A program made the position numbers and the translations under genes. Below the pieces are notes generated by a model. The model searched no databases. It saw nothing but the letters and a program-made list of their open reading frames with translations, and had not been told where the DNA came from. Shown piece by piece: positions 16,282 to 51,049 of a DNA stretch of 64,000 nucleotides. Source of the stretch: Proteromonas lacertae (Eukaryota). Every line of letters begins with the position of its first letter. Position 1 is the stretch's first letter. The stretch spans positions 1-64,000 of the forward strand of contig NGBS01000023.1 of NCBI GenBank assembly GCA_002245135.1, in the 5' to 3' direction.

Positions 16282-18082
16282 ATGAGAGAAAGCTGGACAG
16301 CTGATGACGCAGAAATAAAAAATTATGTTTCTAGAAAATCTGTTGATGTAGAAGCATTAGAAAAAGCCACTAAAAAAGGATCGACATTCCCAGCTAAAAA
16401 GGTAGCTACTGTTTGTTTAGTTATTTTTGTAAATACAGTTAGTCTAAGAATGGTATATCCATTTTTACCCTTTATGGTTAAAGATTTCTATCCAGAAGTA
16501 TTACATTGAATTATTAATTCCATTAGTTAGGTGATACTGAATTAGGGTATAAGTCTGGTTTTCTAGGTGCAACATTTAACTTAGGTCAATTTTTTGGAAG
16601 TTTAATTTGGAGTGTACTTGCTGATATATTTGGAAGGAGATGTACTTTATTAACAGGTGTATTAGGAACATTGGGTAGCACATTATTTTTCGGTTTTTCA
16701 TTGAATTTTATTTGGGCATGTTTAGGTAGATTTATGTGGGGAATACTAAATGGCAATATTTGTGTAGCAAAAGTATATTTATCAGAAATATTAACTAACG
16801 ATCAACAATCGTTAGGATTTTCAGGAATTGGTGTTGCAGATGCAACTGGAGTGTATAAATCACCATGTTTTTACGTTAAAATAGAATCATTGGACCAGCA
16901 ATGGGTGGATATCTAGGTGATCAAACTACTGTGAAACAAATCGGAGAAGTAATAAAAATATTTCAGAAATTTCATTTTCTACTTCCTTGTTTGTTTTGTG
17001 CTGCTTTCTGTTTTGTTGGATTGATAATTGCTCATTGTTTTATTGAAGAAACATTGACACCCCAAGTGAAACAACAACGTGCAGAAATTGCGTATGATTA
17101 TATATATAATTTCTATTATTATTAGTAAAACAAGCAACAGTCATACTACTTGGAGTGTTTTGAAAATAACTGAATTGAGGATATCTATTATTATATTCTG
17201 TATATATTTATAATTAATATAATTATTATTATTAGTTATACTATCCATTCATGCAACTGGTGTTGATCAAATTATTCCATTGTTCTTCTTAAATCCTAAA
17301 GATGAAGGAGGTTTTGCTTTTTCATCTAGTGATATTGGATTGATTTATACTTTTGCAGGACCAATTCAATTATTAGGTTGTCATATCATTTTTTATTTTA
17401 TAATGTTAGTTATTTCTTTAATTTATTGTGTTAATTGTTGTTTATCCTCGTTTTATTGCTAAAACTGGATATAGAATTGGAGAAATGGTTACTTGTTCTG
17501 GTGCTTGTATTTTAACATATTTTCTACCAGTATTAACTGTATTTAATAACTTATCTAAAACTGTATATATATAATATTATATATCTTTCGATTATAGCAA
17601 GCAATGTGGATAATCTGTCCATATATTGGAATACTCCAAATGTTTAGAGTTTCATGTTTTACTACAGTAAATGTGTTTATTAGTAACTCATGTTTTCCTG
17701 AACAGAAGTCTAAAGGTAATGGTATTGCACAGTCGATGTGTGGCATAGGTTGTACAGTCGGACCACTAATTGGAGGACCAATAATGGCTTGGAGTTTGAA
17801 TAATTCAATAGGAGATCCATTCAACTATAGATTTCCATTCTTCATAATGTCTTTATGTCATATTGCTGCTGGTCTTTTTGCTTGGTTTTTACCAACAACA
17901 ATTGAAAAGAAGAAAGAACATAAACATCATGATAATGTATTATCAGCTCCACATTTAGAAAATGGATCTGAAAAGAAGGTAAAACAAAGTCCAAAAGATG
18001 ATAGTTCACATATTATTATGTATATTGTTAATAGTTTTATATATTTATTAGAACTGAGAAAACCAATCTGTTAGATAAGTAA
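16282..18082 (+). CDS. MFS transporter (ZIF1-like), copy 2, tandem paralog; 7 introns including one U12-type
   Basis: WSVLADIFGRRCTLL and GRFMWGILNGNICVAKVYL; colinear with copy 1; last exon ends TEKTNLLDK-TAA at 18082. Confidence 0.88.
17383..17434 (+). other. U12-type (minor) intron, AT-AA termini, 52 nt
   Basis: Donor ATATCATTTT; branch TTCTTTAAT at 17414-17422; removal gives QLLGCLVVYP, gap-free against the paralog QLLSALFFYP. Confidence 0.78.
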
Positions 18083-18230
18083 AAATCATATGTATAAGTG
18101 TTGTTTTTAAATGACTTTGATTTTTTAAATGGGTTATATAAAAACATTTGGAAAATATAAAAATAAAAATAAATTCATTTAATAAATCACATTAATTAAA
18201 AAATTCACATCTAATAATAAAAATATACAT

Positions 18231-20402: not shown

Positions 20403-21326
20403 ATGTCGGTGGATTTATCTAAAAGAATATTAAAACTTTCAGATTATAGAGATAAAATTCATCTAAAGGAAATGTTTGTCAAAAAAACTCCGTCAAACCT
20501 AAATAAAGATGAAAGAAAGAAAAGAGATTATAAAATTATACATGAAATGTGCAAAATAAATAAAATAGAGTTAAAGAATGATATGAACAACAGAACAGCA
20601 GAGTTCATAAGGATGTTTCAAAATATAACGCCACCAGGGGTAATAAATTCAGATTTAATGGATATACTTGATGGATACATAATTGATTTATATAATGGTA
20701 TAAAAATTACTGATATAAAAGAGATTGATTCTATAGAGTGTTATTCCCCTCAAATATTTAAAAATCCATCTAAACTGTTTTTATGGCAAGGTGATATTAC
20801 ACATTTGAGAGTAGATGCTATAGTAAATGCTTGTAATAATCAGTTGTTAGGTTGTTTTGCTCCATTACATATGTGTATAGATAATGCAATACATACTTTT
20901 GCAGGTCCTCGTTTAAGAGATGATTGTGATATAATTATGAAAATGCAAGGTTTTAAAGAACCAACAGGTGAATGTAAAATTACCAGATCCTATAATTTAC
21001 CATGTAATTATGTTCTACATACAGTTGGTCCTATTTATGAAGAATACGAGGATAAGAAAGTCTGTGAATCATTGTTAAAGAGATGTTATATAAATTGTTT
21101 AGAGTTAGCTGAAGAAGTTGGAGATATTCGAACTGTAGCATTTTGTAGTTTATCAACTGGCGTATTTGGATATCCAATTAAAGAAGCTGTTAAAACAGCA
21201 ATGTTGACAGTTGATGATTGGATTTCAAATCATCAAGATAGTAAAATAAGCAAAGTGTTGTTTAACTTATTTTCTGATGAAGATTATAAAGTATATGAAG
21301 AGTTTATAAAAACAAAGAAAGAGTAA
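20403..21326 (+). CDS. Zinc-binding macrodomain (protein-ADP-ribose hydrolase of the SirTM-associated type), intronless
   Basis: LWQGDITHLRVDAIVNACN; LLGCFAPLHMCIDNAIHTFAG (Cys-His-Cys Zn loop); YVLHTVGP; VAFCSLSTGVFGYP. Confidence 0.9.
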   Translation: MSVDLSKRILKLSDYRDKIHLKEMFVKKTPSNLNKDERKKRDYKIIHEMCKINKIELKNDMNNRTAEFIRMFQNITPPGVINSDLMDILDGYIIDLYNGIKITDIKEIDSIECYSPQIFKNPSKLFLWQGDITHLRVDAIVNACNNQLLGCFAPLHMCIDNAIHTFAGPRLRDDCDIIMKMQGFKEPTGECKITRSYNLPCNYVLHTVGPIYEEYEDKKVCESLLKRCYINCLELAEEVGDIRTVAFCSLSTGVFGYPIKEAVKTAMLTVDDWISNHQDSKISKVLFNLFSDEDYKVYEEFIKTKKE

Positions 21327-22036: not shown

Positions 22037-25000
22037 TTATAATCTTCTGAGTCCTTCATCTTTTATCACTATTGATTCATACCAAGCATAACACCCTTGA
22101 ATAATACCAACAACAGATAATACTTGAATAGTTGAAATATCACTTAATAAACCAACTGCAGCAATAGGCACATAAGATATAAATGCTATTTTCTGTATAT
22201 GATAATTCCAAAAATAGATATTTGTTGTTATAAGTGATGGTAAAATACAAATAATTAGAATAGAATTCTTAATAAAATAAAATGATCCAAATTCATTACT
22301 ATCATTATCATCATAATTATCTTTCATTATTCGAAAGACTCGATGTAATAAAGAAATAGTAATTGACCAACAAATAGGTGAATATTTTGATAATGTTTCA
22401 TTATAAAACTTCAATAACAAAATATCATGTTGTAAACATAACAACAATGAAGAGATTGCCAAATAACATATTATCCAATCTTTATAAGACACTATCAATA
22501 TATAAGCAGAGAAATATCCATAGATTGCTGAAATATTTCCTATAACTGCATGCCAATAATAACCTTTCTGAAGAATCTCATTTGCTGACATTTTAGCATA
22601 TCTAAATGAAGTTACTTTACTAGTAAATGCTAACAGTATTGAAATAAATGTAAATAATGATAAAGAAGTTTGATAACATGCTTTATAATAATCTATTCCA
22701 TTTTGTATTGGATAATTCTTGTATAAATAATTAACTAACAAAAGAAGAGCAAACAATGATGATATTAATCCACAATAAAACCATAACAATAACTTGGATG
22801 TAAATGGACTTGGATATAGTAAGAATATCAATGTTAAAGTAAATAATACAAACATAATACTCAATATTATAAAAATAGATAATCTCAAAGGATAGAAATT
22901 ACCAATAATGTATAAACTTAAACAAATTCCACATATTACACCATAACATATTCTTAAAAACAATGATTTCTTTATTGATACTATATCCAATACAACTACA
23001 AGTGTAACTCCAAATAACATTATTAATACCCATGGTGGCCAAAGTGGTTGTTCATTATTATCACTTTCAAATAGTAAAGATCGATTGATTATTGCATTAT
23101 ATATATCTAACATTAATAAATGGAATTGTATTTCTGGTTGTAATATATATAATAATGAAGCTATAACGAATAAAATCAATACAAAACGATGTAAATATGG
23201 AGATAAATTAATAGAGAATTTATCATAAAACAGTGATACAATTCCCCAAATAATTAAAGTACAAGAATTGACAACTGCATTTGGAACATAGGATTGGAAT
23301 AATATTAAATATAAATGATGTAACATTGAATATCTTAATAAATACAATATAAATCCACTCAGAAATATGCAACTACAAATATATTCTATTTTATTATAAC
23401 ATATATCAATGAATAATGGAAATGTAATAACTCCTACAAATAATAACACTAACCAACTTTCTTTATTACTAAAACCACATAAAATAGATAGTTTTCTTAA
23501 ATGTATAATGGTTAAAAACCAAGGATATACATTATTCACATGTTTTTGTTTATATATTCTCTTTGAAATGTATAATCCAATTGCACAAGTTATCAATAAG
23601 AAATATGAGTTATATATTCGATTATACTTATTTCGATAAAATATTTCTTCATTGTATAAACTCATTTCTAATAAAGTAAAGCAGAATGAATGTATTATTA
23701 ACAACAACAATGAATAAGGACGAGTATTATCATTATTATACAATGGTGGAAATAGGAGAATGATAACTGCGAATAATAACAATAAATATGCAACATTAGT
23801 AAGCGAAAGGGGATGGAATTGATTGAAAATGAAAAGTAAAAACATGATATTAAGGAAATAAAGAAGAAAATGCAATTGAATTAAAATGATATTCTAAATA
23901 CCAATATGTCTTTTGAATAAACCAATGATATGAACAGATAATTCCAACTATTATTGAAACATAAGTCTAAATAAAAGTCATTATAAAATATACATAAAAT
24001 GATTTCTTAAAGAACAATTCTACACTTTTATATACAGCAAATGTTAATATTGGAATATAAATAATATTAACTCCAAATAAAAAACACAAACAAAATGCAC
24101 TTATTGTCATACAACTTTTACCAAATTTCTCATTATTTTTACTATTTATTATATACAGAGAGATAACTATATATTGATACTTGTTAAATTCCAATACATA
24201 AGATATTGGGAAATATAACAACAATAACAATGATATAGTAAAGAATATAAAATTGAAATAAGTTGATAATACCATAAACTGATTACAGATTTTATATAAT
24301 ATTCGAAGTTCAAAACCAATTGTAAAAAATATTAATGACATTGCTGTTGCTAATTTCAATAATAATGAATAAAACTTTTCTTTTTCTATTAAAATATAAT
24401 TATCTAGTCAATATACGATAAACAGCTAATATCTTATAATGATTATAATAATGTAACAAGATGATTGGTGCTGAAGAAATCATTAATAATTCACTTATAT
24501 TATTAACATCAAAATGTATAAAAATCAAATTGAAATTAACAATCAAATGAATTGTATTTGGTATAGCAAGGAAATAGTATAACATTATACTTGTATCTTT
24601 CTTCCTTAATATTCTTAATTCTAATTATAACAAATACTTATAATAGATACGAAGTGGAACATTATAATTATTCTTCATATAAAATGATATATTGGATTTC
24701 AAAAATGAAGATTGTTGTGGAATAATGAAATAACTGTAATATATTACTGTAAATATAACAAAGAACATTGATATATGTGTTGAATGAAATACTGTTATTA
24801 CAACCCAAACTAACAGCAATGGCATTATTATTGGTATAAACATAAACAGTAATCTTTCCAATACTAATACTGACTTTGGTTCATCCCTTTGAATAAATTT
24901 GAACTGTAAAGTAATCCATATGCCAAATAATATCAATAATGAAAGCAATATCAAAACAACTAAAAAATTCCATATTGAGTATTCTAGTAGTGGTATTGCT

Positions 25001-25402
25001 GATAACCATATTGAGACAGATGATATTACAATTGTAAGCCACACAGAACCAATTGTACTATATACATTTAATAAAAATATATAACTAATATATATTTATA
25101 CTATTCTTCAAACCCAAATAGATCGAATGTATAACTGATTATACTTCCTGTAATTAAAAACCCTACCATTCTATACAGAGAGAAAAATATTGAAATGTTG
25201 ATACAGTTTCCCACAAAATGCAATTAAAATTAACAGACCAGGTAATAAGCTAAGAAAAACTCTCATGTTATATTCAAAGCCACAGCTAACAAAACTGACA
25301 ATTTCTTCTTTAGCTTTGCTTTCTTTTTGATTATCTCCATCATTATAATGCACCTGAATGATTATCACTGCCAACTAAACTACGATGAGTGATATTTTGC
25401 AT
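22037..25402 (-). CDS. NO EXINE FORMATION 1 (NEF1)-like polytopic membrane protein, about 7 introns including one U12-type; start uncertain
   Basis: FEYNMRVFLSLLPGLLIL and GIWITLQFKFIQRDEPKSVLVLERLLFMFIP resemble recalled plant NEF1 motifs (WASLQFKWIQ.ENPSIV.ALERLLF); many hydrophobic helices. Confidence 0.75.
23836..23892 (-). other. U12-type (minor) intron; AT-AC end at 23836 or AT-AA end at 23823
   Basis: Donor ATATCATTTT at 23892; branch TTCCTTAAT at 23857-23849; removes an in-frame TAA; no suitable GT-AG pair found. Confidence 0.7.
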
Positions 25403-27450: not shown

Positions 27451-28954
27451 ATGAATTTTAAAACTATATATCTAACTGTTTATGCTGTTATCGTGATATC
27501 TGTTGCATTTTTAGTGAATTGTGTTGTAAAAAAGGATTATATGGACGAGATATTTCATGTTGAGATGAGTAAAAGATATCTGGATAGTATAAATAATCTA
27601 TTATGCGTTAATATAGTGAATTTTAGTTATTGGGATCCAAAAATAACAACATTTCCAGGATTATACATCTTCTCTTTTGCGTATAAGTAGTTGCAATATT
27701 TTCATAGTGTTTGTTATCCAATGAAATATGTATTTGCTAAACTAAATATCCAAATTGATGATTTGTTTTTATTCAGATCAATGAATATCCTGTTTAGCAT
27801 TGCAACTTACCTTGTCATGTTCAACATATTAAAAAAACTACATGGTCATGAATATACAGATGCAATTCTATCAGTTCATGCATTTTCACTAGTGTTATTT
27901 CCAGTTTATTTCTTCTTCAATTTTCTCTTCTATACAGATTTAGGTTCTGTATTTTTTACACTCTTATCTTTCTATTATTCATTACCTGATTATGATAAAG
28001 AGAAAGGTGTTAAAGATTTGAATATTTCAAATGTTACAATGTCAATGATCTATGGAATAATAGCAATATTTTTTAGACAGAATAATATAATATGGATATT
28101 GTTTATTATAGGTAATATGATATTATCAATAATAGATCCATTCAAGATTAATAGTTTCAAACAAATATTGAATGGGATTATTAAGAAAATGAGTGTAATA
28201 ATTGAAATATTTGAAATTTATATTCCACTGATTATTGGTTTTATTGTGTTTCTAATTTATAATGAAGGATCAGTTGTTGTTGGTGATAAATCAAATCATG
28301 TACCAGCATTTCATCCTACTCAGATATTATATTTCATATTATTTTTATCAATTCCTTATTATTTAAGATATATAATGAATGTTAAATATTTCATTCATGA
28401 GTTTCTTCATAGTGGTTTTGGATTTGTGAAGAATGCTTTGTTTATTATAATTTGTTGTATTTTGTCATTTATTATAATTGAGAAATTTACATTAATTCAT
28501 CCATTCTTATTAGCTGATAATAGGCATTATACTTTTTATATTGTTAAAAATATATTGAAGGTATAGTTTCTTCAATTTTTATAATTTAATAGAAAGAATG
28601 GTATTATCGATTTGCGCCATTTATTTATGGAGTATCATGCTATGTCACTGTTATTAATATGAAGAAACACATGTCACAATGGCAGATTATAGGATTCTTT
28701 GTGTGTTTATTCTTATGTCTGACACCTGCACATTTGATTGAGTATTAATATTGTATAGTTATTAATGTTATAGATTTCGTTATTTCTTAATCCCATACTT
28801 TATAATTCACCTTTATACCATCACTAAAGAGAAAAGAAATGAAATAGTTGTGCTTAATATTCACATGATAGTCAATATAATCACAATATATATATTTCTC
28901 TTCAAACCATTCCTTTGGCCAGGTAATGAAGATCAACAGAGATTCATGTGGTAA
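27451..28954 (+). CDS. ALG10: Dol-P-Glc alpha-1,2-glucosyltransferase ALG10/DIE2, 4 introns
   Basis: YMDEIFHV; WDPKITTFPGLY; FLFYTD; FRQNNIIW; VVGDKSNH; HPFLLADNRHYTFY; C-terminal FKPFLW...QRFMW*. Confidence 0.95.
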
Positions 28955-29265: not shown

Positions 29266-32200
29266 ATGACAGAACAAGGAGATTGGAGAAGGTCAGTCCC
29301 AACAATTAAAATTGATCCTAGAACTGTCAATTTACATCCTGAAGGTTACCCTATAAGTAGAAGTCCAAAAGCATATAAAAGAGAAATGACTGCAAGTGAA
29401 CAAGCAGTTGAAGTGAACTGGCAGCATAAAATTGCTCCAAAGCGTAGAATTATATATCCTCAGAATTGTCCTTTGTTTGCACATGTGACACTTCAACAAC
29501 ATCAAGAAACTGAGAATATTCGAAAGAATTCAGCAAGAAGCACATCCTCTGAACCACCAGTTCGAACATCAACCAAATTATCATCCCAAACAGCAATAGA
29601 AAGAACTCAAAATTCTGCAAGAAGATATAATCGTAAAAGATCAAATAGTTCATCAAGTAAAAACTCTGCTAGAAATGCAATTAATCAATCAAATTCAATA
29701 GCTCCTTCAGAGCAAACTCAAAACAACACAACAATGGAATCAGACTTACCTTCACCAGGAGTACCTGTATTAAAACAAGTATGGGTGACTGAAGTAGCCA
29801 ATCCAACACCAAGTGAAAGAATTGCGTTGAATTATAGTCAACCATTAGGTCATGCATCTCCTAGATTAAGTATATATTATATATATATACAATATCTATT
29901 ATTTAATTAGTGAATTTACAAAAGAAGAAAGCCAATCCTCCTCCTACAGTCACAACTAAAGATAGACCAGCTTCTAGCCTTGGGTTTGGTCATTTATTAC
30001 CAAAAGAAGATAAAGTCAGACCATTTAGACCAGTATCAGCATCACCTAGGGCAGATGGTATATTTGATGAAAGTGATTCAGATGAAGATATAGACGATGA
30101 AGATGATGAAATAGATATTAGTAATTTGCAATTTAACGGTTCAATATTGAGTAAAAATAAGAATAAGAAGAATAAAAAGAAAAAGAAAAGATTATTGAAA
30201 AGTCCAGTATTAGAACCAACTTCAACATTATTACCTCATTATGATGAACCAGCTCCATTATATGATAGAGACTTTATATTCATAGATGAATCAAAGTTAC
30301 CTGTGTATTTCTACGATCATCAAGAGTATGAGTCAAAAACACCCGAACAATGGCTTGAGAATGGTCCAATTACTGGTAAATCGCCAATGTATGAAAATGG
30401 TGCATATATTTGGGCACCATGCAATATCTTAAAATATGATGCATCTAAGACGAAGTATTTAATACAATTCGTGTATACAGGTAAAGAGAAATGGGTAAGA
30501 CGATTAAACTTAATGATGGATGAAGAAAATGCTGAAGATTTTTGGAAGAGAAGAATTGCATCTTATAATGATAGAGAGATGGCTAAGTGTGGTATTAGAT
30601 TAGCATTACATACTGAGAATCAACCAAGTGATGATATTCACGTTGCTCCAATGCAAAAGGAGTGGCAAGAGGATATATTATCAAAGATACTGACATTCAG
30701 TGATCCAGTTGTATATATGCAGAAGAATAAGAGAAAACTAGAAAATGTATTAACTGAAATTAGGAATCATTACATGCAAGGTGTAAAAAGAGGTATTTTG
30801 GAGTATAGACTCTTATCTGAGAATGAACGACAGAAGTTTATTCATTTAAGAATACCAGTCCCACCAAGAGATCCACCAGCTCCATTCTATGGTGAAATAA
30901 CTGATATACCTGAAGATAGAGGTGATTACTCGTTATATAAAGAGAATATAAGAGGATTACACTTTACTAAGCATAGATCAATATCTATATTATTATTATG
31001 GATTAATACAATTTGGGATACTGATTATGCTGATAGAATAATGTTAGATGCATTTGATAGAGAAGTTAAAGATATAGAATTGAAGTTTAATATTCCTTGT
31101 CTATTATCTAACTTTGAAAATCATCAAAAGAAACATTCTCGTAAGATGAGAGATACATTATTGAATGACTGGAGAACGATCTTATTACAATATGTATCTG
31201 ATGATTTTCAAGGGATTTATGATATGTTAATAAAATCAATTGAAGAATATGAAGTAAGTCCAATGAAACAAGAATTAACACATATTCAATATAATATTGG
31301 AGATCAATTAAGATTGATGGGAGTAAATACAGTAGATAGATATATTAATATGATTGAAGATTATTGTGAAAAAGATGAAAATAAAGCTCAAGTTTATGAA
31401 CAATATTTTATAGATAGAACTCCTGAAATGAATGGTTTACCTAACTTTATACCAACAGAAGTAGGTGATATACGTGAACCAGATATTAAATACACAGCAA
31501 TACCAGTTCCACCTCATATTCCACCTGTTATCTATACACATCCAGCATTATTTAAAGTGAATTTGGTAGTTGATGTTAATAATGGTATATGTAGATTAGA
31601 TCCATCAGCTGAAGATATTGAGAATACAATTATTGGATGTTTAGAAGATTCTATTAATTATTTTGGTGATATTTATAAGATAGATCAAATGATATTGACA
31701 CTTATTTCATTACCATTAGAACCATTAGTTGATTTTAAAACAAAAGATGAAAGTAATCCAACATTATCATCTATATTATACATTGAAAAAAGAATAGAAG
31801 AAGTAAGACAATATATAAGACAATCATTAAATGCACCATTAGCTTTAGCTGATTTATATACATCAGTAGCACAATATATCACATTAGATCCGTATGAAGA
31901 AATGAAGAGAATAGGTGTAAGACCTTGTGATAGAATCGATCCAGAGTTAGAAGGACAAGTGGAACAAACTGATCCATTAGATTATCCACCACAACCTGAG
32001 GATTATATAGATGAGAGAGAAACATTGAGATTATATAAGAGAATAATAGATGTAGTTAGATATTTATCTAATGATACTGAATATTTTAGTTTAGTTCAAG
32101 TAGATTGTAGAATGGCTAAAGATGTTATAGAAACAACCAGTAATACAATATATAGAACAATAATAGGAGGAATTGAAGAAGACCAAAGTGAAATTGTTGA

Positions 32201-35200: not shown

Positions 35201-38200
35201 ACATAGATTAGTCTCACATGATAACTTCATTAGAAAATGTTTACAGTTGTATGATACTACAATAGTTCGACATGGTTTGATGTTAGTAGGTGGTGCTGGT
35301 TCAGGTAAAACATGTGTTATTAATTGTCTAAGTGCAGGTATGAGTGTATTGAAAGATATGTCTGATTATGAGAATGTTAAAGTTGTAACAATAAATCCCA
35401 AATGTATTACACAAGATCAATTGTATGGTAAATTTGATGAGAATTCACATGAATGGCAAGATGGTGTATTAGCTGTACAAGTCAGAGTTTGTGCAAAAGA
35501 TACAACACCTGATAAGAAATGGATAGTATTTGATGGTCCAGTAGATGCAGTTTGGATTGAAAATATGAATACAGTCTTAGATGATAATAAGAAATTATGT
35601 TTAAACAGTGGTGAAATTATCAGATTAACTCCACAAATGACTATTATGTTTGAAGTAGAGAATCTTATTGTTGCATCACCAGCTACTGTTAGTCGATGTG
35701 GAATGGTGTTTATGGAGCCAAAACAGTTAGGATATAATGCATTAATAGAATCATGGAGAATGACATTACCAGAAGGAATAAAGTTTATGGAATCATTTAT
35801 ATTTACACTTATTGATGAATTAATACCGCCCTGTTTATCATTTGTAATGAAAAGATTAGTAAAACCATTACCAGTTACTGAGATGGAATTAACATCATCA
35901 TTCTTAAGATTAGTAACATCACAATTGGATGAAGTGTTTAAAGATAATTGTGAAACATTACCATCATCACATGAATTAATGTCATATTTTGAAAGTATAT
36001 TCGTGTTTTGTACAGTTTGGTCAATTGGTATATGTACAGATGAACATGGTAGAGAGTTGTTCAATGAGTTTTTCAGATTACATTTATCACCAGCTAAAGT
36101 GAATACTGATGTAGATGATAAACCAGAAGTAGAAATATCAAAAAGACAAGCATTAAAGAACTTAAGACCAATTCCAAGAGATGGAAGTGTTTATGATTAT
36201 TATTTCGATAAAGAATCAAAGAAATGGGTAAAATGGACATTAATTAATGATAATAGATATGAAATACCTGATACAATTGAATATTCCAGTATATATGTAC
36301 CAACAATGGATAATATTCAAATATCAATGATTACTAATGATTTATTATTCCACGGATATCATACATTAGTTGTAGGACCAACTGGTACAGGTAAATCAGT
36401 CACATTTATGAAGAAACTATACGAAGAATTGCCAAGAGATAAATGGAGTCATACAATATTAGATTTAACTGCCACAACTACAGGTAATCAAGTACAAACA
36501 ATGATTGAGAATAAACTAATCAAAAGACGTAAAGGCTTATATGGTCCAACACCTGGTAAAACAATGATATGGTTTATTGATGATATGAATTTGCCTATCC
36601 CAGAATCATCAGGATGTCAACCACCAATAGAATTACTCAGACAATGGTCAGATCACGGTGGATGGTATGAAATACATGAACAACCAACTTACTTTAAGAA
36701 TATTCAGAATGTGCAGATGTTAGTAGCAATGGGTACTCCTGGTGGTGGTAAATATCCAGTTACTATGAGATTATTAAGACATTTCTCTATTATGAATGTT
36801 GTACCATTTAATGAAGAAACTATGAGGACGATATTCTCCACAATTGTAGCTTGGTTCTTGAGACCATTCCCTAATTCAGTAAGATCATTGAATAAAGAAT
36901 TAGTTGATTCATCTATTGAAATATTCCAAATTATCTCAACAGAATTACTTCCAACACCAGGTAAACTACATTATACGTTCAATCTTCGTGATTTATCAAA
37001 AGTATTCCAAGGTTTATCACAAGGTAGTAAAACAAGAATTACAGAACAAGTGCAAATGGCTAGAATGTGGTCACATGAATGTTTACGTATATTCAGTGAC
37101 AGATTAGTTGATGAAACAGATAGACAATGGTTTATGAAGAATTTGAAGGATTTGTTATATAAATATTACCATATGACATGGGAAAAAGTCAAAGGTGATC
37201 AAAATCGTATAATATTTGGTGATTATATACCATCCCATCAAGGAGATTATGCTGAAATAGAGAATCATGAAGAAATGAAACAGATTATACAACAACAAAT
37301 GGATGAATATAATACAATATCAAGTTCACCATTAGAATTAGTATTATTTGATATGGCAATTGATCATATGAATAGAGTAGCAAGATGTATTAGACACCCT
37401 CAAGGTAATGCATTACTAGTAGGTGTAGGTGGTAGTGGTAGAAAATCAATCAGTAGATTAGCTTCCTATATGCAACAATATAGAACTTATGAAGTTGAAG
37501 TATCTAGAAGTTATACAGTTCAATCCTGGAAAGATGATTTAAAGAAAGTGATTAAAATCGCTGGTGCTGAGAATAAGAGTATTTGTTTTATATTTTGTGA
37601 TACTCAAATCATGTATCCTTCATTTATGGAAGATATAAATGCATTATTAAATACAGGTGAAGTTCCTAATTTATATGAACAAGATGAACTTAGTCAAATC
37701 TTAGAAGCTGTTGGTCCTGCTGCAGTAAGAGCTGGTAAAGGTGGCAATAATGTTGATATGTATAACTTCTTTGTAGAGACAACAAGAAAGAATTTACATA
37801 TTATATTATGTTTCAGTCCAATTGGTAATGCTTATAAGAGTAATTTACGACAATTTCCATCTATTGTTAACTGTTGTTATATTGATTGGTTCTCAGAATG
37901 GCCAAGAGAAGCTTTAGAAACAGTTGGTGAATTTGAATTAAAGAAAATGAAGTTTAATGACATTTTGAGAAAGAATCTATTAGATATATGTGTTGATATG
38001 CAGGAAAGAGTTCAAGGATTATGTAAAAGGTATTTAGCTGAACATCATCAACATTATTATGTAACACCGATGAGTTATTTAGGATTAATGAAGACATTTT
38101 CTACTATTTATTTGAATAGAAAGAATGAAATGATGAAAACTCAGACTGGTTATGCTCAAGGTCTTCAGAAGTTATTAGAAACTGAGTCAAAGGTAGAATC

Positions 38201-41200
38201 AATGAAAGAAGAGTTAAAGAATCTACAACCAACATTAGAAGTAGCCAAAGAAGAAGTTGCTAAGTTAATGGAAGATATTAGTGTAAAGCAAATATCGGCA
38301 GATGCTCAAAGACAAGTTGTAGAGAAAGAAAGTGAAGAATGTGATAAACAAGCACAAGATGCTCAAGCTATAAGAGATAGTTGTGAAGCAGATTTATCAC
38401 AAGCATTACCTATATTACATGCTGCTGAAAGTGCATTAAAGAAATTATCTAAAGCTGATTTAGTAGAAGTCAAATCTATGACAAATCCACCAAAAGAAGT
38501 TAAAGTGGTGATGGAAGTTATGTGTGTATTTTTGAAAGAAAAATTACAAGGAACTTATTGGGAAACTGCCAAGAAGAAGATATTAAATGATACAAAATTA
38601 ATTGATAAATTATTAGGTTATAATAAAGAGAAGATGGATGAAAAATTGATTAATAAAATCTTGCCATATTTAGATGTAGCTGAATTTTCAGAAGCAAGAG
38701 TTCAAAATGCGTCCAAAGCTGCATTTGGTATGTGTAAATGGATTAGAGCAATGGTTAAATACTTCTATGTTGAAAAATCAATTAAACCAAAGAGAGAAGC
38801 TTTAAAAGAAAGTGAACAGAAATTATCTGTATTAAAAGCAGCATTAGCTCAAAAGCAGTCTGAATTACAGCAAGTAGTAGATCATTTGAACCAATTAAAG
38901 GCAAGTTTTGATGATGCTAATAGTAGAAAAGAAACTTTAGAACAACAAGTAGAAGATTGTAAAACAAGATTAACAAGAGCAGAGAAATTGATTTTAGCTT
39001 TAAGTGATGAGAAGTTAAGATGGGCAGATAAAGTGAGTGAATTAGGTAGTTTAAGTGAAAATGTAATTGGTGATTCCTTACTAGGTTCTGGTATAGTATC
39101 ATACTTAGGATTCTTTATGAAATCATATCGTGAAGAATGTATAAAGAATTGGAAAGATCAATTGAATGAAGCAAATATCATAACAACACCTGATTTCTCA
39201 TTAAGAAAATGTTTTGGTGAAGCAATTCAAATACGAAGTTGGACAATACATCATTTACCATCAGATGATTATTCTGTTACTAATGCATTGATATTACAGA
39301 ATAGTTTAAGATATCCATTGATGATAGATCCACAAGGACAAGCTTCTAGATGGATTAAGAGTAATGAAAGTGAAAGAGGTTTGAAGATAGTTCGACAAAA
39401 TGCAAGTGATTTTGTAAGAACATTACAAAATTGTGTTCAGTTTGGTAAACCAGTTTTAATAGACAATGTAGCTGAAGATATAGATGCTGTATTAGATCCA
39501 TTGTTATTAAAACAGATGGTAAGAATTGGTGGAGTTGATATGATCAAAGTAGGTGATTCTCAATTCAAAATGGATGATAATTTCCATCTATATATGATTA
39601 CTAAACTCAGAGCACCACATTATCCACCTGAAACGTGTGTTAAAGTGAATTTATTAAACTTCATGGCTACAGAAGACGGTTTATCTGATCAAATGTTAGG
39701 AATTGTAGTAAAGAAAGAAAGAGCAGAATTAGAAGAAAGAAGAGAAAGATGTCTATTAGAAAGATCAGAGAATCAAAAAGAGTTGAAAAGAATAGAAGCA
39801 AAGATATTACAAATGATTAGTAGTGCTGAAGGTAATATATTGGATGATGAAAGTTTGATTGAAGCATTATCAGAATCAAAGATTACTTCAAATGATGTAC
39901 AAGAAAGAGAGACTCAAGCTGAAAGAACAGAAAATATGATTACTTCTACAAGAGAGAAATATCAAGCTGTATCTGAAAGAGCTTCTTTGTTATTCTTTTG
40001 TATTTCTGATTTAGCTGGAATTGATAATATGTATCAATATTCATTAGAATGGTTTGTTGGATTGTTTAATAGAGCTATTGAAATTGCACCAAGATCAGAT
40101 AAAATCGATGAAAGATCACAATTTTTGATTAATAGTTTTACTTATTTGATATATACTAATGTCTGTAGAAGTTTATTTGGAGTTCATCATTTATTATTCT
40201 CATTTTTAATGTGTACAAAGATAATGACATCACAGAATCTTATACAATCAACAGAATATAGATATTTCTTAACTGGTAATACAGCAATGGAAATACATCA
40301 AGAGAATCCATGTGTAGATGAAGAAACAGGTAAGAAATGGTTAAGTGATGAAGTATGGAAAGATTTATATGGATTACATGATATTGAGTCATTTACAAAG
40401 TTTATTGATGATATAATAGAGAATCCAGAGATGATAAGAATAGTTGTTGATTCTGTCAATCCTAATGAAGATATGAAAGAAATAATAGAACCTTATGAAT
40501 TCAGTAGTTTTCAACAATTAACAATTATGAGATTCTTACGTTTAGATAAATTAGTTTCATTTATACAGTCATTTATATGTGATAATATGGAAAAGAAGTA
40601 TGTAGAATCACCACCATTTGACTTAAATGCTGCTTTTAATGATAGTACCTGTGTTACTCCAATTATATTCATGTTATCACCAGGTGCAGATCCAATGAAA
40701 GATTTCTTCAGTTTAGCAGAAGAGTGTAAATATGAAAAGAAATTAAAAACATTATCACTAGGTCAAGGTCAAGGTCCAATCGCTGAAAGTGCAATATTAG
40801 AAGCAGTAGATAAAGGTACTTGGGTTGTATTACAGAATTGTCATTTAGCTATTAGTTGGTTACCAACATTAGAATCATTATGTGAAGGTATCACTGTAGA
40901 TAGATGTAATCCAACATTTAGATTATGGTTAACCTCGAAACCAACAGAAGCATTTCCAGTATCCATCTTACAGAATGGTGTAAAAATCACTAAAGAAGCA
41001 CCAAAAGGATTAAGATCCAATTTAATTGGTTCTTATTTAAGTTATAGTAATAAGATGTATGATAAATGTCCCAGAGCTAAAGATATGCATAGATTGTTAT
41101 ATGGTTTATCATTCTTCCATGCATTAGTACAAGAAAGACGTAAATATGGTCCATTAGGTTGGAATATATCTTATGAATTCAATGATAGTGATTTAAGAAT

Positions 41201-42473
41201 CAGTGTTGCACAATTGGAATTATTCTTATCCACTTGTAAATCAGCTGAAGATATTCGTTATGATGCATTGCTATATTTGACAGGTGAATGTAATTATGGT
41301 GGAAGAGTAACAGATATGTGGGACAGAAGAACGTTAAACTGTATTTTGGAGGATTTCTATAATCCAAATGTATTAGAAAATGGATATTTATTCACTGAGG
41401 ATCCTACATATACTATACCTGAATATGGTCCAATCACTGGTGTTGTTGATTTTATTAAAACATTACCATTGAATGATGGTCCAGCTGTGTTTGGCTTACA
41501 TCAAAATGCTGATATAACATGTACAATTTCCGAATCAAAGACATTAATAAACAATTTATTATCTTTACAACCAAGAACATCAAGTAGTAATGATAGTAGT
41601 AATGAGAATTCAGGTACAAATAGTTTACTAACAGTAGTTGATGATTTAAGAGAAAGAATTCCAGGTACATTTGATGTAGAAGGTGTTTCAATATTATATC
41701 CAGTGAAATATGAACAATCAATGAATACTGTATTACAACAAGAATTACAAAGATATAACAAATTATTATCCAAAATAGATTCATCCTTAGAACAACTAAA
41801 GAAAGCAATTAAAGGATTGATTGTTATGTCAATTGATTTAGAGGAATTAGCTGGAAGTATAGAGAAAGGTTTAGTACCAGAACTATGGAAAACAGTATCA
41901 TATCCATCATTGAAACCACTTGGTTCATGGATTAAAGATTTAATAGAAAGAATAGATTTCTTCAAACATTGGATTGATGAAGGACCAGCTAGTAATTTCT
42001 GGATAAGTGGATTCTTCTTTACACAATCATTCTTGACAGGTATTTTACAGAATTGTGCAAGAGCTCATCAAATACCAATTGATGCATTAGGTTTTGATTT
42101 CCAAGTCTTAACAACTGAAGAAGAAAGTAGTATAACCGAAGCACCAAAAGAAGGATGTTATATTCATGGTTTATTCTTGGAAGGTGCAAAATGGAATAGT
42201 GAAGAGATGGTGTTAGATGAACAAGATCCAAAAGAATTATATTGTGTAGTTCCAACCATTCAATTAATACCAAAAGAGACTGTAAATATTGATATGAATA
42301 GTCATAGATATACATGTCCTGTATATAAAACATCTGAGAGAAGAGGTGTATTATCAACAACTGGTCATTCTACTAACTTTGTGGTTGAAATGTATTTGCC
42401 CATGAAAGAAGAACATGATGAGAATCATTGGGTTAAGAGAGGAACAGCATTATTAACACAATTGAATAGTTAA
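29266..42473 (+). CDS. DNAH1: Axonemal inner-arm dynein heavy chain, DNAH1-like; one intron (29870-29910)
   Basis: P-loops GPAGTGKT, GGAGSGKT, GPTGTGKS and GVGGSGRK; FPRFFFLSNDELIEIL; C-terminal HWVKRGTALL; N-terminal LPVYFYD..YESKTPEQW...WVRRLNL segment typical of DNAH1. Confidence 0.9.
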
Positions 42474-42513: not shown

Positions 42514-43585
42514 TTCAAAATCTTAAAAATAACATATTAATAATATCAATTTTCATTTCATTTAGTAGTTAAAACTACAAATATCAACTTTCGCATTTGG
42601 TAGTACAAAGAAATTCTATTATATAAATATTATATAGATATATACTATTGAATGTCCATCAACAGTTATTATTCCTTTACCTTCTTTACCAGATAAATCA
42701 GGTAATTCACCTTTATCGTTTAAATGTAACTTCACTCCATTCAAATATACTCTTTTAGCATCTAAACTATCAGCTGTAAAGTAAATTTCATTAAGAAATT
42801 CTCTATTTTAAGATTTATTATTTAATTAAATAGGATATTCTATATTCTTTTCTTTCAACATTTTCAAATTCTATATCTTTACTTGTTATGTTTACAGATT
42901 CTTTTAACAAATTTAATACTTCAATTACTATGCCTCCAGAATATTCACATGAACATTGACCATAGATTCGAATCATTTTATTAGAACTACTTACACTTAA
43001 GATTTTATTTCCTACTATATTTCGCCATACTTTCATTACATAATAATCACTATTTGGTTCACGACTTTCATCTCTTTCTAATAAAGAATACCAACCACCT
43101 ACAAATGCTTGACGAAATTGAGCTTTTATACCAACTTCAGCTAAACCTGCTAAATCATCAACATAATAGAATGATGAAACAAATCTATCAGTTACATTAT
43201 CATGTCCACTATCACAAGCAGCTGCTCCCTCACCCATATATATCTTCATATTTGGATTCTTTGATTTCTTAACCAACTATACATAATTGAAATGATTCTT
43301 GTATATATTTATACATTAACAATACTTTTAGCTGCATCAATGTGGCTATTTAAAAAAGATGGAGTAATTATTTTTTGTAATATATCATCATCTTTACCAT
43401 TAGTGTCATCTAACAACAACAATAAATATATGTTTATATATACAGTGATGATAGTTAATAATATCTAATAAATCATTTTCTATTAATGGATTTAAATATT
43501 CTGGTTTAACAGCAGTGTGATCTGGTCCAATTATCTTTGGTCTTACATCTTTATTTGGCCATAATCTTTCAATTTCTTTCTTAAA
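42514..43585. repeat. Left arm of a 1072-nt inverted repeat (partner 45070-46141)
   Basis: Reverse complement appears identical by eye, including introns and 3' flank; the ORF track gives identical 152-aa products at 42818-43276(-) and 45379-45837(+). Confidence 0.92.
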
Positions 43586-44285
43586 CATTACATAATCATC
43601 AAATTCCTGTTTTGGAGTAATATCGTAATCTAATTCATTTCCTAATTCCAATCCATATATTAAACCATTTTCATAATAACGTTTTTCTTTAATAAATTTC
43701 AACAATTGGAATGAGTTTTTATAGTCCCATTTTGCTCTTTTGTCCTGATATCTTCCGCCCATTCCATTGATTCCGTATATCAATTGTATTCCAGTTTCAT
43801 TGCAGAATTGAACAATCTCATCAAATCTTTTGGGTGTCATACACAAAATACCAGGACAATAATATGGATTTCCTTTATAGCTACAATATAAATAATTAAA
43901 CATTTAAACATACTAAGTAACTGGAGGATCTTCAAAATCATATGGTATTGAATCAGCTACAGTTCCACCAATTCTTAAAATAGCTGGTTTTAACACTAAT
44001 AATATAATAAAATTCGATAATACTTTCAACAAGATAAGTCAACCTTGATTCTTTCAAATTGAGTGTAATTACACTGCAATTAATCCATGCATTGGATTGT
44101 AATGAGATATTAGGATACCAATAATCTAAAGTAAACGATGCATAGAAGTCTTCAACAACATTTACTGGTTTTGTGAGATTTAAACCAACGTCAACATTTT
44201 TCTACTCATTCGTATTTTAAAATTATACAGCATCAGCTATAAATATAGCGGTAGCTAATAATAACAGGGTAAGTAAGAATTTCAT
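42562..44285 (-). CDS. Secreted GH79 heparanase/beta-glucuronidase-like glycoside hydrolase, copy A, 7 introns (one AT-AC)
   Basis: Signal peptide MKFLLTLLLLATAIFIADA; PAILRIGGT; LELGNEL (acid/base); IYMGEGAAA (nucleophile); RQAFVGGWYSLL; PNSDYY. Confidence 0.88.
42781..42838 (-). other. U12-type AT-AC intron, 58 nt, in GH79 copy A
   Basis: Reverse complement of 45817-45874: ATATCCTAT...TTTCTTAAT GAAATTTAC. Confidence 0.85.
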
Positions 44286-44374: not shown

Positions 44375-46093
44375 ATGAATTTCTCACTCGCGGTATTATT
44401 TTTAGCTGCTGCTGTATTTGTAGCTGCTGCTGTATATTTTATTAAATATTATAAAATAGAAAAATGTTGAAGTTGGTTTAAATCTCACAAAACCAGTAAA
44501 TGTCATTGAAGACTTCTATGCATCTTTTACATTTGACTATTGGTATCCTAATATATCCTATCAATCCAATGCATGGATTAATTCAAGTGTTATAACACTC
44601 AATTTAAAGAATCCAAGGTTAACATATCTTGCTAATAGTATAAAAGCAGTTCATTAATTTAATAGTGTTAAAACCAGCTATTTTGAGAATTGGAGGAACT
44701 GTAGCTGATTCAATACCATATGATTTTGAAGATCCTCCAGTTACCTTAGTATATTTAGATATTTTATAGACATATCATATAGTTTTAGAGGGTTTCCATA
44801 TTATTGTCCTGGTATATTATGTATGACACCCAAAAGATTTGATGAGATTGTTCAATTCTGCAATGAAACTGGAATAAAACTGATATACGGAATCAATGGA
44901 ATGAGTGGTAGATATAACAATACAAAAGCAGCATGGAATTATAAAAATGCATTCCAATTATTGAATTTTATTAAAGAAAAGAATTATGTTGTAATATATG
45001 GATTGGAATTAGGAAATGAATTAGATTATAATATCACTACCAAAACAAGAGGTTGAAGACTTTAAAATATTTAAGAAAGAAATTGAAAGATTATGGCCAA
45101 ATAAAGATGTAAGACCAAAGATAATTGGACCAGATCACACTGCTGTTAAACCAGAATATTTAAATCCATTAATAGAAAATGATTTATTAGATATTATTAA
45201 CTATCATCACTGTATATATAAACATATATTTATTGTTGTTGTTAGATGACACTAATGGTAAAGATGATGATATATTACAAAAAATAATTACTCCATCTTT
45301 TTTAAATAGCCACATTGATGCAGCTAAAAGTATTGTTAATGTATAAATATATACAAGAATCATTTCAATTATGTATAGTTGGTTAAGAAATCAAAGAATC
45401 CAAATATGAAGATATATATGGGTGAGGGAGCAGCTGCTTGTGATAGTGGACATGATAATGTAACTGATAGATTTGTTTCATCATTCTATTATGTTGATGA
45501 TTTAGCAGGTTTAGCTGAAGTTGGTATAAAAGCTCAATTTCGTCAAGCATTTGTAGGTGGTTGGTATTCTTTATTAGAAAGAGATGAAAGTCGTGAACCA
45601 AATAGTGATTATTATGTAATGAAAGTATGGCGAAATATAGTAGGAAATAAAATCTTAAGTGTAAGTAGTTCTAATAAAATGATTCGAATCTATGGTCAAT
45701 GTTCATGTGAATATTCTGGAGGCATAGTAATTGAAGTATTAAATTTGTTAAAAGAATCTGTAAACATAACAAGTAAAGATATAGAATTTGAAAATGTTGA
45801 AAGAAAAGAATATAGAATATCCTATTTAATTAAATAATAAATCTTAAAATAGAGAATTTCTTAATGAAATTTACTTTACAGCTGATAGTTTAGATGCTAA
45901 AAGAGTATATTTGAATGGAGTGAAGTTACATTTAAACGATAAAGGTGAATTACCTGATTTATCTGGTAAAGAAGGTAAAGGAATAATAACTGTTGATGGA
46001 CATTCAATAGTATATATCTATATAATATTTATATAATAGAATTTCTTTGTACTACCAAATGCGAAAGTTGATATTTGTAGTTTTAACTACTAA
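44375..46093 (+). CDS. GH79 heparanase-like copy B; two single-base insertions (~44744 and ~45039), either errors or a pseudogene
   Basis: Signal peptide MNFSLAVLFLAAAVFVAAA; same intron positions as copy A; stop TAA at 46091-46093. Confidence 0.8.
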
Positions 46094-46141
46094 ATGAAAT
46101 GAAAATTGATATTATTAATATGTTATTTTTAAGATTTTGAA
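45070..46141. repeat. Right arm of the 1072-nt inverted repeat
   Basis: Reverse complement of 42514-43585. Confidence 0.92.
45817..45874 (+). other. U12-type AT-AC intron, 58 nt, in GH79 copy B
   Basis: Donor ATATCCTAT; branch TTTCTTAAT at 45857-45865; acceptor TTAC; splicing gives RKEYR/FTADSLDAKRVYLNG, matching the GH79 C-terminal EEY.LT....L....V.LNG pattern. Confidence 0.85.
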
Positions 46142-47220: not shown

Positions 47221-50200
47221 ATGTCTGATAAAAACGTTGATACACTTTTGGACGATGTATATTTTATAAGTTATTGCTTTTATTTGATTTATAGATCCGA
47301 AACAAGCCACTTGATGACAGAATAATGGCTTATTTAGACTTAGGTAACTTGGTAAAAGCAAATACTGAATCAGTTATGAAAAGAATTGAGGATATATGTG
47401 ATTGTATCGTTCACACTCTTACAAAGAAAGATGAAGGCACAGAAACAATAGAGGTTGCAATGAAATGTATGGAAGCTTGTATAAATAAAGCTGGAGGAGA
47501 TCAGTTGAAGCATCTTACTGAAGCACTAGTTCAGAAGCTAATCGAAGAGAAAAAAAATTGTGACAGTTTTATGATGGGTTTAAAATCTATCATTACAAAT
47601 GCTAATAAGGAGTTTGTTCCAATGATAGCAGATTTGTCAATAAACCAATTAGTTGATGCTTTAGCTAATACTTCAATCTCAGATGATGTAGTATATGGAA
47701 TATTATTTGTCTTATCAAACGACTTCAATGTAGCAGGTAAAACAATTATTGTAAGAAAAGATGCAAGTCAAGCTAAAGATGTAGATGAAATGTTAAAGAA
47801 GTTGATTTCAAGAGCTTTAGAGTTAGTTTATCATCCTGCAAGTCGTATCGGTAACGAATCTATTGATTTATTGAAGGTTTTAACTCCTCATATTTCATCC
47901 AAAATCTTAGCAACAATTGTTCCAACATTATTAACTTCAATGGCTGATAAGAGTAAGTGTTATCGTTCTATCTGTTGCTTGAGTAGTATATTGACCAGTA
48001 CAGCTAGTAGATTAGTGAAATATCATAAAGAAATAATGGAGAAATTAAAGGCAGTGAAGAATGAACAACAATTGTCATCAGCTGATCAAGAACCTTGTGA
48101 AATTATTGAAAGAATTCAATTTTGTTACAGCAGTCTAGTATCCACAGGAAGAGATGAAATACGTATATATATTGAACCAATGTTGGAGGAAATAACTCAA
48201 GATATGGTGTTTGATCCAAATTACAATTACGATTGCGCTGTAGCAACACCAAGTGGAAATGCAATGGAAGAAGATAATAATGATAATGATGATGATGAGA
48301 ATGAATATGAAGATGATGGATTTGAATATGAAGATGAGCCTGAAGATGATGATGATTATGGTTGGAAAATCAGAAGAGGATCTGTTCAATTATTAAACAG
48401 TATAGTGAATAGTAAAATGATTCCATTATCAAAGGTTTATGCATTATGTTCAGAAACTTTGTTTTTATGTTTTAGAGAGCATGATGAATTAACAAGATTG
48501 GAAGTAATCAAATCAGCAATGAATTTATTAAATAAAATGATATTTAAATCTGATAAGAGTGAAATTGTTGCTGAAAATCCATCTTCATTCCCATTAAGAG
48601 GAAGAACTCAATCATTCAGAGTTCCATTGAAAGATGACGCACCTGCATTAAGTGAGAAAATATATGAATTATTAACAAGTGGATTATCAATGCCAATTAG
48701 AAGCCAATTATTTGCATTTTTATCAACTTTCTTTAAATCATGTGCTTCACTAGGAATGAGTGTAGAAAAACAGATTAATAAAGTATCTGAATTGATACAA
48801 ATACATATTAAAAACTTTAAAGATTTTCCAGATGATGGTAAATTTAATATTTTGGATAGTTTATTATCATTTGTATTATTCTTCAGAGATAATGAAATCA
48901 CTACTCATTTAGAATCAATCTTATTAATAGTTGGAGATTTATCTAAATATAATTTTAATAATAAATTATTATCTACTTATTTATCAATAATAAATACTTT
49001 AATCATTAAATGTTCAGATAATGAAACGAATTATAAAGTGTTTAGTAATAGTCATAAAGATATATATAATTACTTATGGAATTTATTAAACAGTAAAGAA
49101 AGTGAACAACAGATTAAAGATTCATGTTGTGATATTATTGGCTTATTAATTAGATATTTTGGTTTTCCAAAAGATATTAAAAGCGATGATTTTTATAAAT
49201 ACATCAGTTCTAAAGTGGTAATTGATAATTCAAGATATCATGCAATCTTATGTATTATTCAAATAGTACAAACTAAAGTGAAAATTGATTTAAAATACTT
49301 TGCTAAAGATGATTTATTGATTGAATTAACTAAATATATGAACCATCATAGTAGAGATATTCAAAAAGCATCAATTAGCTGTTATAAGTTATTATTAACT
49401 AATTTGAAATTAGCTATAAAACCTGAAGTTTTACAACATTTATTAGATCAAATTAACACATTATATCATGCTGGAAAACAATATTATGTTATTGTAGTCG
49501 ATATGTTGGATATATTATCAATAATTGTAACAACCAATGTCAAAGTCGATAAGAATGGTTTAAAGGACATGGTATTCCATATGATGAAATATACTCAATT
49601 ATCTGATGATCATTTGAATATTATAGCTAACTTTATTATCGTATTATCTGATAATACTTTACCATTAGCATCCATATTAGATGATTATTTCAAATTATAT
49701 AAGAATGATAATGAAATACAAAATAATAATACAAATCTAGCTAAAGTCTGTGCTTCTATTATCACTCATATAGTTAAAAACTCTAAAGAGAATCCAATTG
49801 AGAAATTATATCAATACAAACAGAATAATACTAATGATGTTATAATTCCATTATACTTTAAAGTAATTGGCCAATTTGGTTATAATAATAAAATACTGAA
49901 TTATTTACCATCCTTTGATAAAGATATTCCTACATTAATGACTGCTTATACTGATCCAGTTATTATCTCATCTTTATCTTATTGTTTTGCTTTATCTACA
50001 TTAGGAAGTATGAATGAGTTATTTCCATTATTGTTGAAGTATTGTGTAGAAATTAATACATTCCATTATTATTCATCTTTATATACCTTAGTACAAACTA
50101 TTAGAAGTAAAAATATATCCGTTTCAGTTGATAATATTAAAGAGATTGTGAAGTTATTGAATAGTAAATTGGATTCTGATAATAATAGTATTAGAAATTT

Positions 50201-51049
50201 TGTATATATTATTATTATATTATCATATTATATGAATAGATAATATCAACCTATTCAAATATAGTATTAATCAATCCAAGAACATTAGCAGAATTAACTA
50301 ACTTATTAAATGGTAAAAACAATCTCCAAATAACCTCCATACTTACTATAATAAGTGGTAGTGTAAATGAATCAACAGCTGATTATATTGTATCACATTT
50401 CAAGAGTATTGTTGAGTTAATAAAGAATGATGATATTAATATAAAGAGAGAATCTTTATCTGTTATATTATCATTATTAAAATACAGTCCTATTTTATTG
50501 AGAGACTTGTTAATTGAGAATAATGTGTTGGACATATTGTACGAATTAATAAAGAAGAATAACGCTTTTGTTACTTCTGTACAAATTGGACCTGTACAAA
50601 ATATATCCTTTTTTTTTTATTTTATAATCATTTTTTTTGTATTTTATTATTTTTCTTTAATTTCTCTCTTTGTGTAAGAAGAAGATAATGGTATACCTTT
50701 AAGAAGAATCACATATACCATATTAAAGATATTAATTGACGTATATCCACAATTAATCGACATTAATAAGATATGTGATGAATTAATAAATGGGTGCAAT
50801 GATACAGCAGAAATTGAGAATTTATCATCCCATATATTGAGTAAAGTCATACAATTATCACCATCTTGGGCTGAAGAGAGATCTGCTAAGATAATCGGTT
50901 TGCTTGAGAAGAGAGTGTTGAATAGTAAGAAGAATCCACCATCTGAAGAAGCATTGACTAATTATAAGAAGGTTTGCAGTCATGTAAAATACACATTAGC
51001 TTATGCCAGTAATTTCAGATTTAAGAAAGTTGCGTCATCGTTGCCATAA
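47221..51049 (+). CDS. CAND1: Cullin-associated NEDD8-dissociated protein 1 (CAND1/TIP120), HEAT repeats, 3 introns (one AT-AA)
   Basis: N-terminal LLDDIRNKPLDDRIMAYLDL; FDPNYNYD + acidic tract + WKIRRGS; FREHDELTRLEV; VQIGPVQNEEDNGIPLRR (compare VEMGPFKHTVDDGLDIRK). Confidence 0.87.
50603..50677 (+). other. U12-type (minor) intron, AT-AA termini, 75 nt
   Basis: Canonical donor ATATCCTTT; branch TTCTTTAAT at 50653-50661; ends GTGTAA, an in-frame stop if unspliced; removal restores the CAND1 hairpin motif without a gap. Confidence 0.82.

Follow-up and report, generated by a model that had tools for sequence, protein, structure and literature searches.

Candidate U12-type introns with AT starts and variable last bases in four genes of Proteromonas lacertae

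In most eukaryotes, about 0.3% of introns are minor introns. A 64-kb stretch of DNA from Proteromonas lacertae (assembly GCA_002245135.1, contig NGBS01000023.1, positions 1 to 64,000), referred to at its full length as the window, contains five AT-start segments that interrupt the reading frames of its genes. It raises the question of whether these segments are minor-spliceosome (U12-type) introns and whether they point to an expanded minor-intron system. The window is eukaryotic, has a GC content of 27.3% and uses the standard genetic code. A self-trained gene finder, run over the whole window, returned 25 gene models with 107 introns, in keeping with the roughly 100 counted in a preliminary description. 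These comprise 102 GT/GC-AG introns and the five AT-start segments. The five are likely introns of four unrelated genes. A minor (U11/U12) spliceosome kept by the organism would remove them and would accept C, A or T at the last position.

The first candidate lies in the gene for MFS transporter B (17383 to 17434, plus strand). It contains 52 nucleotides (nt), has AT-AA termini and is in phase 1. Its donor is ATATCATTT, and its branch box is TTCTTTAAT at 17414 to 17422. It is supported by a paralogue alignment and by the gene finder. The second lies in the gene for a NEF1 (No exine formation 1)-family membrane protein (23836 to 23892, minus strand). It is in phase 2 and ends in AC in its 57-nt version. 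Its donor, at 23892, is ATATCATTT, and its branch box, TTCCTTAAT at 23849 to 23857, is perfect. It is supported by a frame test, a hidden Markov model and relatives. The third and fourth lie in two GH79 heparanase-like genes, copy A (42781 to 42838, minus strand) and copy B (45817 to 45874, plus strand), and are identical to each other. Each contains 58 nt, has AT-AC termini and is in phase 0. The donor is ATATCCTAT, and the branch box is TTTCTTAAT (42790 to 42798 in copy A and 45857 to 45865 in copy B). The copy B candidate is supported by conserved-Asn spacing. The fifth lies in the CAND1 gene (50603 to 50677, plus strand). It contains 75 nt, has AT-AA termini and is in phase 0. Its donor, ATATCCTTT, is perfect, and its branch box is TTCTTTAAT at 50653 to 50661. 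It is supported by homology and by relatives. Both GH79 candidates fall inside an exact inverted repeat of 1,072 nt, in which 45070 to 46141 is the inverted copy of 42514 to 43585, so the five segments represent four independent loci. That count agrees with the preliminary description, as do the coordinates, donors, boxes, lengths (52 to 75 nt) and box-to-3' spacings (12, 13, 9, 9 and 16 nt, in the order above).

The U12-type consensus signals and the optimum of 11 to 13 nt between branch point and 3' end are printed in 10.1101/2020.10.12.336362 and PMC3584512. Compared with RTATCCTT, the donors have 0 or 1 mismatch in 5/5 segments. Three of the 102 GT/GC-AG introns have 1 mismatch, and none has 0. 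Compared with TTCCTTRAY, the boxes have 0 or 1 mismatch in 5/5 segments versus 1/102 GT/GC-AG introns (Fisher P = 1e-6, four loci). Position +5 is C in all five segments versus 3 of 88+3 GTAT donors. The branch A is at -14 from the 3' end in MFS B, -15 in NEF1 (-22 if that intron is 64 nt), -11 in both GH79 copies and -18 in CAND1. The segments are longer than the major introns (P = 4e-4). They are T-rich throughout, and a polypyrimidine tract is indistinguishable from this background. All four independent loci start with AT, and two of the four end in AA. The system had been called diverged, but its divergence is modest in the donors and boxes, at most one base off consensus, and lies mainly in these last bases.

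A clean filter kept 89 of the 102 GT/GC-AG introns. They have a median length of 33 nt and a range of 24 to 52 nt. The commonest major-intron form in the window is a tiny GTAT...TAG. The donors among the 107 introns include GTATA (61), GTATT (20) and GTATG (7), and 96 introns have TAG at the 3' end. A G at +5 is rare in the major donors, a hint of altered U1 or U6 pairing.

The motif pattern of the preliminary description has 6 matches in the window versus 1.9 +/- 1.4 in shuffles, and 0/100 shuffles reach 6. The sixth match is an upstream ATATCAT that shares one box with a listed segment. This count alone is circular, because the pattern was fitted to the five segments and looser patterns are unenriched. 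A non-circular test used the gene finder with generic matrices (RTATCCTTT and TTCCTTRAY), in which the motif is coupled to the reading frame. It chose the same five donors at priors of 0.1 to 5%, four of them with exactly the ends described before. The gain from the generic matrices was 25.2 log units at a 1% prior. Column-permuted matrix pairs gained 0 to 6.7 in 14/14 cases and never recovered the five-donor set. Extra U12 candidates (7626, 27785, 1133 and 63747) surfaced only at priors of 20 to 50%. The site at 27785 was rejected, as it lies within the Pfam-matched ALG10 frame, and the site at 63747 was rejected, as it sits in an open frame.

It had been claimed that GT-AG splicing does not fix these breaks. 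Each of the five sites does have a GT-AG solution that reopens the frame, at the cost of conserved residues that are lost or substituted. Prediction with GT-AG introns only invents false introns of 25 to 135 nt at these sites, with the same damage.

Homology gives the length of the removed sequence at three loci. The CAND1/TIP120 gene (47325 to 51049, plus strand; Pfam TIP120, PDB CAND1/CAND2) contains one GT-AG intron and the AT-AA candidate. Its read-through translation (X at the stop) was aligned with human CAND2 (8vvy). Residues 120 and 148 fall on chain residues 1088 and 1091, which is an insert of 25 codons, and therefore 75 nt would be removed. A metagenome contig scan gave three distant CAND1 loci (20 to 36% identity), including L001 and L002. 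With 75 nt removed, CAND1 is ungapped over the junction against both, with a score of 107 versus 65 and 48 for GT-AG models. L001 has no intron at the site. A metagenome contig scan with the last CAND1 exon gave nothing, and PDB searches with that exon alone or with the GH79 downstream exon alone gave nothing useful.

The gene for MFS transporter B (16282 to 18082, plus strand; Pfam MFS_1) contains six predicted GT-AG introns and the AT-AA candidate. Its tandem paralogue, MFS transporter A (14604 to 16205, plus strand; Pfam MFS_1), lacks the AT-AA intron and serves as an internal control. With 52 nt removed, MFS B is gapless against this paralogue, with a score of 268, whereas the GT-AG model reaches 213. 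Of 1,354 deletions that restore the frame, the 52-nt removal ranks joint first with one 46-nt AT-TG deletion. In total, three introns are predicted in MFS A and seven, the AT-AA candidate included, in MFS B. MFS A also has a 1-nt frame break near 15742.

The GH79 genes (copy A, 42562 to 44285, minus strand; copy B, 44375 to 46093, plus strand) both match Pfam PF03662 and PDB entries. After removal of 58 nt, two conserved Asn residues are 38 residues apart. Leech hyaluronidase (7eyo) has the same spacing of 38, heparanase has 40, and a 109-nt GT-AG model would give 21. These spacings were counted by hand, as the alignment printed by phmmer put the translated intron onto the chain. By these alignments, homology fixes the predicted removed length at 75 nt in CAND1, 52 nt in MFS B and 58 nt in GH79. 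The divergently oriented GH79 pair is 81 to 87% identical in its 5' half and, in its 3' half, shows 100% identity over 1,072 nt. This identity would be the product of recent gene conversion, duplication or assembly collapse.

The NEF1-family gene (22037 to 25169, minus strand) was identified by phmmer (E values of 1e-19 to 1e-9), and its matches are named NEF1 in Vanilla and Chara records. Homologues occur in plants, Mesostigma, Diphylleia and other protists, and no Pfam family matches the window protein. Atlas searches gave no family for it. The donor at 23892 and the perfect branch box are secure, and the exon up to the donor bears the W-F-L-D motif of the family. The length given in the preliminary description is less so. 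It is 57 nt and divisible by three, whereas a length of 1 mod 3 is needed for the frame downstream. Removal of 57 nt thus leaves the frame broken unless a 1-nt break is added, and the alternative is a 64-nt AT-AT intron ending at 23829. A profile of 23 homologues gave 60.1 bits for the 57-nt AT-AC intron with a 1-nt break and 55.2 bits for the 64-nt version. Ends at 58 and 67 nt gave 57.3 and 58.7 bits, but with CT and TT termini. A 55-nt GT-AG bypass scored 407 bits versus 432 to 437. Other 1-nt breaks exist in the window, and none occurs in the 12.5-kb frame of its dynein gene. On balance we favor the end at 23836, where the preliminary description had placed it.

Close relatives were found by protein search. 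They are Logan proteins, called on genomic contigs and reading on into introns. CAND1 relatives are 85% and 51% identical, the next CAND1 exon has relatives at 87%, and NEF1 relatives are 90%, 88% and 52% identical. In CAND1, ISF (the translated donor) follows the exon in 12/12 relative peptides, which then diverge in a T-run. Read together, two frames of the 87% relatives imply that the TTCTTTAAT box is unchanged and that the intron ends in RA and not in AC or AG, provided that both come from one allele. In the 52% NEF1 relative, RISF is kept at the same place in 4/4 peptides. The preceding exon fits the true frame of the window gene at 13 to 15 of 24 residues, and 0/5,000 shuffles score as high. 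The best-fitting intron in this relative is 41 nt, 5 bits above the next, and its end falls within an Ile codon, which therefore makes it an AT-AT intron. Independent contigs, assembled from short reads of the relatives, contain the CAND1 and NEF1 inserts as well. The 51 to 52% relatives (P0002, P0021 and P0032) also carry extra AT-rich inserts where the window has none. These inserts suggest intron turnover in the lineage.

Several points weigh against the U12-type reading. Homology sets the length of the removed sequence but leaves its position some slack of a few bases. In the CAND1 comparison with L002, six starts score equally, and the 46-nt tie at MFS B is the same problem. The exact termini rest on the donor motif for this reason. 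The NEF1 site works only if the assembly has an error in this single-copy gene or if the 3' end passes over an AC that lies in a good position. The donor is imperfect at 3/4 loci, and a T-rich background eases the formation of branch-like boxes. Two looser motif patterns were not enriched over shuffles (35 vs 30.6 and 3 vs 4.2). The DNA of the relatives was deduced from peptides, and conservation covers CAND1 and NEF1. The window encodes none of U11, U12, U4atac and U6atac or the minor-specific proteins, which is uninformative at a scale of 64 kb. An Rfam scan of the window likewise gave no minor small nuclear RNA (snRNA) and 0 matches at the gathering threshold, again uninformative at this scale. 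One sub-threshold Rfam long noncoding RNA match inside the dynein gene was rejected as chance.

With these points counted, the sequence, its homology and what the relatives conserve lend good support to a U12-type identity. The candidates are likely a variant form that always starts with AT and often has a non-canonical last base. We infer excision from the mRNA, use of the minor spliceosome and the exact last base. In the minor spliceosome, U11 and U12 recognize the donor and the branch box, and U4atac/U6atac complete catalysis with U5. Here, U11 would pair with the ATATC(C/A)T donor. U12 would pair with TTYYTTAAT and bulge an A 11 to 18 nt from the intron end. U4atac/U6atac and U5 would carry out catalysis. 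The 3' end would be chosen by its distance from the branch point, and AC, AA and AT ends would be tolerated because of this. The candidates are probably longer than the major introns of 24 to 45 nt because both extended signals must fit.

The question of expansion is more evenly balanced. The candidates make up 4 of 103 introns, or 3.9% (95% confidence interval, 1.1 to 9.6%), in one window that was chosen after the fact. The denominator is good only to about 95 to 110, because some of the models for the first gene bridge frameshifts and because genuine introns of KTI12 and ALG10 went unpredicted. The probability of at least 4 in 103 is 3e-4 at a minor fraction of 0.3%, 0.006 at 0.7%, 0.02 at 1% and 0.15 at 2%. 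The share in this one window is above an ordinary 0.3% but compatible with a Blastocystis-like 1%, and the expanded system of the preliminary description is at most plausible. The strongest rival accepts the same introns and takes the genome to be merely Blastocystis-like, with about 1% or fewer minor introns, and the window to be a dense outlier. At 1%, a genome of 200 to 800 windows would hold 4 to 15 windows this dense, and this one was flagged because it is dense. In part of a survey (PMC10639083), only Physarum is extreme, and fungi reach 0.554% at most. The four loci lie in four unrelated genes, and chance would give them with a probability of 3e-4 at 0.3%, which argues against an outlier. 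Annotation-based counts elsewhere can miss non-GT-AG introns, a point that cuts both ways. We judge the outlier explanation to have an even chance. A genome-wide minor fraction of at least 1% is probable. A fraction of at least 2% has about even odds, by judgement and not by computation. Expansion of minor introns in the lineage is plausible. A bolder proposal, which we hold tentatively and lean against, is an AT-rich flagellated lineage, present in many metagenome assemblies, with 2 to 5% minor introns, second only to Physarum. Its minor introns would nearly all start with AT, have a freed last base (AC, AA or AT) and end at a ruler-like distance from the branch point.

It is unlikely that the major spliceosome, with relaxed termini, removes these introns as U2-dependent AT-AC introns after loss of the minor machinery. 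Such introns exist, as stated in part of PMC1557818, and the major donors GTATA, GTATT and GTATG (88/107) are one base from ATATC. U2-dependent AT-AC introns are recognized by a U2-like donor body and no U12 box, and the five segments do not show this combination. The C at +5, the branch box and the distinct lengths also separate them from the major introns, with the frequencies given above. The U2 route needs no conservation of the box, yet the box is kept in relatives.

A reading in which assembly errors, lesions of pseudogenes or retained sequence account for the breaks, and splicing is of the GT-AG kind or absent, is very unlikely. In its favor, several 1-nt frame breaks without splice signals occur in the window, the NEF1 site may include one, and GT-AG alternatives reopen the frame at the five sites. 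Against it, the inserts are 52 to 75 nt and not 1 nt, those in CAND1 and NEF1 recur in independent contigs of the relatives, and the GT-AG models cost conserved residues and score lower (213 vs 268 in MFS B, 65 vs 107 in CAND1 and 407 vs 432 to 437 bits in NEF1).

The rest of the window contains other genes. The longest encodes a single-headed inner-arm axonemal dynein heavy chain (29266 to 42473, plus strand). Its best PDB matches are DNAH7, DHC2, DNAH12, DNAH1 and DNAH3, at >1000 bits. It has about 4,390 residues and a single predicted intron in a region that is otherwise intron-dense. The dynein makes it likely that the organism has a flagellum and speaks against Blastocystis itself as the host. 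The tiny introns, low GC content and AT-start minor introns would fit a flagellated relative of Blastocystis. An intronless macro-domain gene (20403 to 21326, plus strand; Pfam PF01661) was possibly transferred from bacteria, an assumption we base on similar genes. The region from 3 to 7123 (plus strand) encodes a very long, Cys-rich, repeat-bearing, membrane-anchored product with no Pfam match. It is probably one surface protein broken by frameshifts, and odd GT-AG models at 1220 to 3544 probably patch further 1-nt breaks. Breaks of 1 nt without splice signals occur near 3855, 4275, 15742, 44990 and 45050, mostly in repetitive or duplicated genes. They are likely assembly errors in homopolymers. 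The start codon of KTI12 is apparently split (AT|G) by a GT-AG intron at about 61275 to 61302 (minus strand) that the gene finder missed.

To our knowledge, large-scale gain of minor introns is documented mainly in Physarum. If the proposed 2 to 5% with a freed last base holds for this lineage, it would have a high-density minor system independent of that one, and the choice of the 3' splice site could be studied there in its simplest form. Another lineage with several percent of minor introns, all starting with AT and free to vary in the last base, would be relevant to the question of whether new minor introns arise and to how the minor spliceosome selects the 3' end. If the fraction is only about 1% genome-wide, the result still usefully carries the Blastocystis pattern over to a lineage with flagella. 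Annotation with GT-AG introns only would be wrong in 5/25 gene models here, because such a predictor invents false introns. A new minor-intron origin is left open for Blastocystis in part of PMC10639083, which calls for more species. In the literature searched, which subscription papers mostly fall outside, we found no study of minor introns in any flagellated relative of Blastocystis, Proteromonas included.

Three known systems can be compared with this one. In animals and plants, U12-type introns account for about 0.3% of the total, are mostly GT-AG and are non-canonical in about 4% of cases (PMC3584512), with AT-AA as the commonest non-canonical form. The candidates share the RTATCCTT donor, the TTCCTTRAY box and the short branch-to-3' distance with them. 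In contrast, there are 0 clear GT-AG U12-type introns among the 102 models here, and AT-AA accounts for 2/4 loci (P = 0.009 at 4%). Physarum polycephalum has 20,899 minor and 154,299 major introns, and its minor introns mostly start with GT and have a transformed TTTGA branch site (10.1101/2020.10.12.336362). The two systems are alike in a high density of minor introns (here in one window), in AT-AA and AT-AT termini and in being hidden from GT-AG-only annotation. They differ in that the candidates all start with AT and have near-canonical TTYYTTAAT boxes and no TTTGA.

Blastocystis, for which we rely on portions of the papers cited, is compared last. In Blastocystis ST1, 346 of 35,412 introns are minor in one study (PMC5608401). 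A second reports 253 minor introns, 77% of them AT-AC, with a median of 39 nt (PMC10639083). All four minor snRNAs are present (PMC5608401 and PMC10639083). As in ST1, short minor introns occur here among major introns of about 30 nt. AT starts dominate in both (77% AT-AC there, 4/4 AT here), and phase 0 is common in both (49% there, 2/4 here). Unlike those of ST1, the candidates are 52 to 75 nt long versus a median of 39 nt, their local density is about 4% versus 0.7 to 1%, and two of the four loci end in AA. Almost all flagellar genes are gone from Blastocystis (PMC12129017), whereas the window encodes a flagellar dynein. Between ST1 and B. hominis, 11 of 12 minor introns were lost (PMC10639083), whereas the CAND1 and NEF1 candidates persist in relatives with 87% and 52% protein identity.

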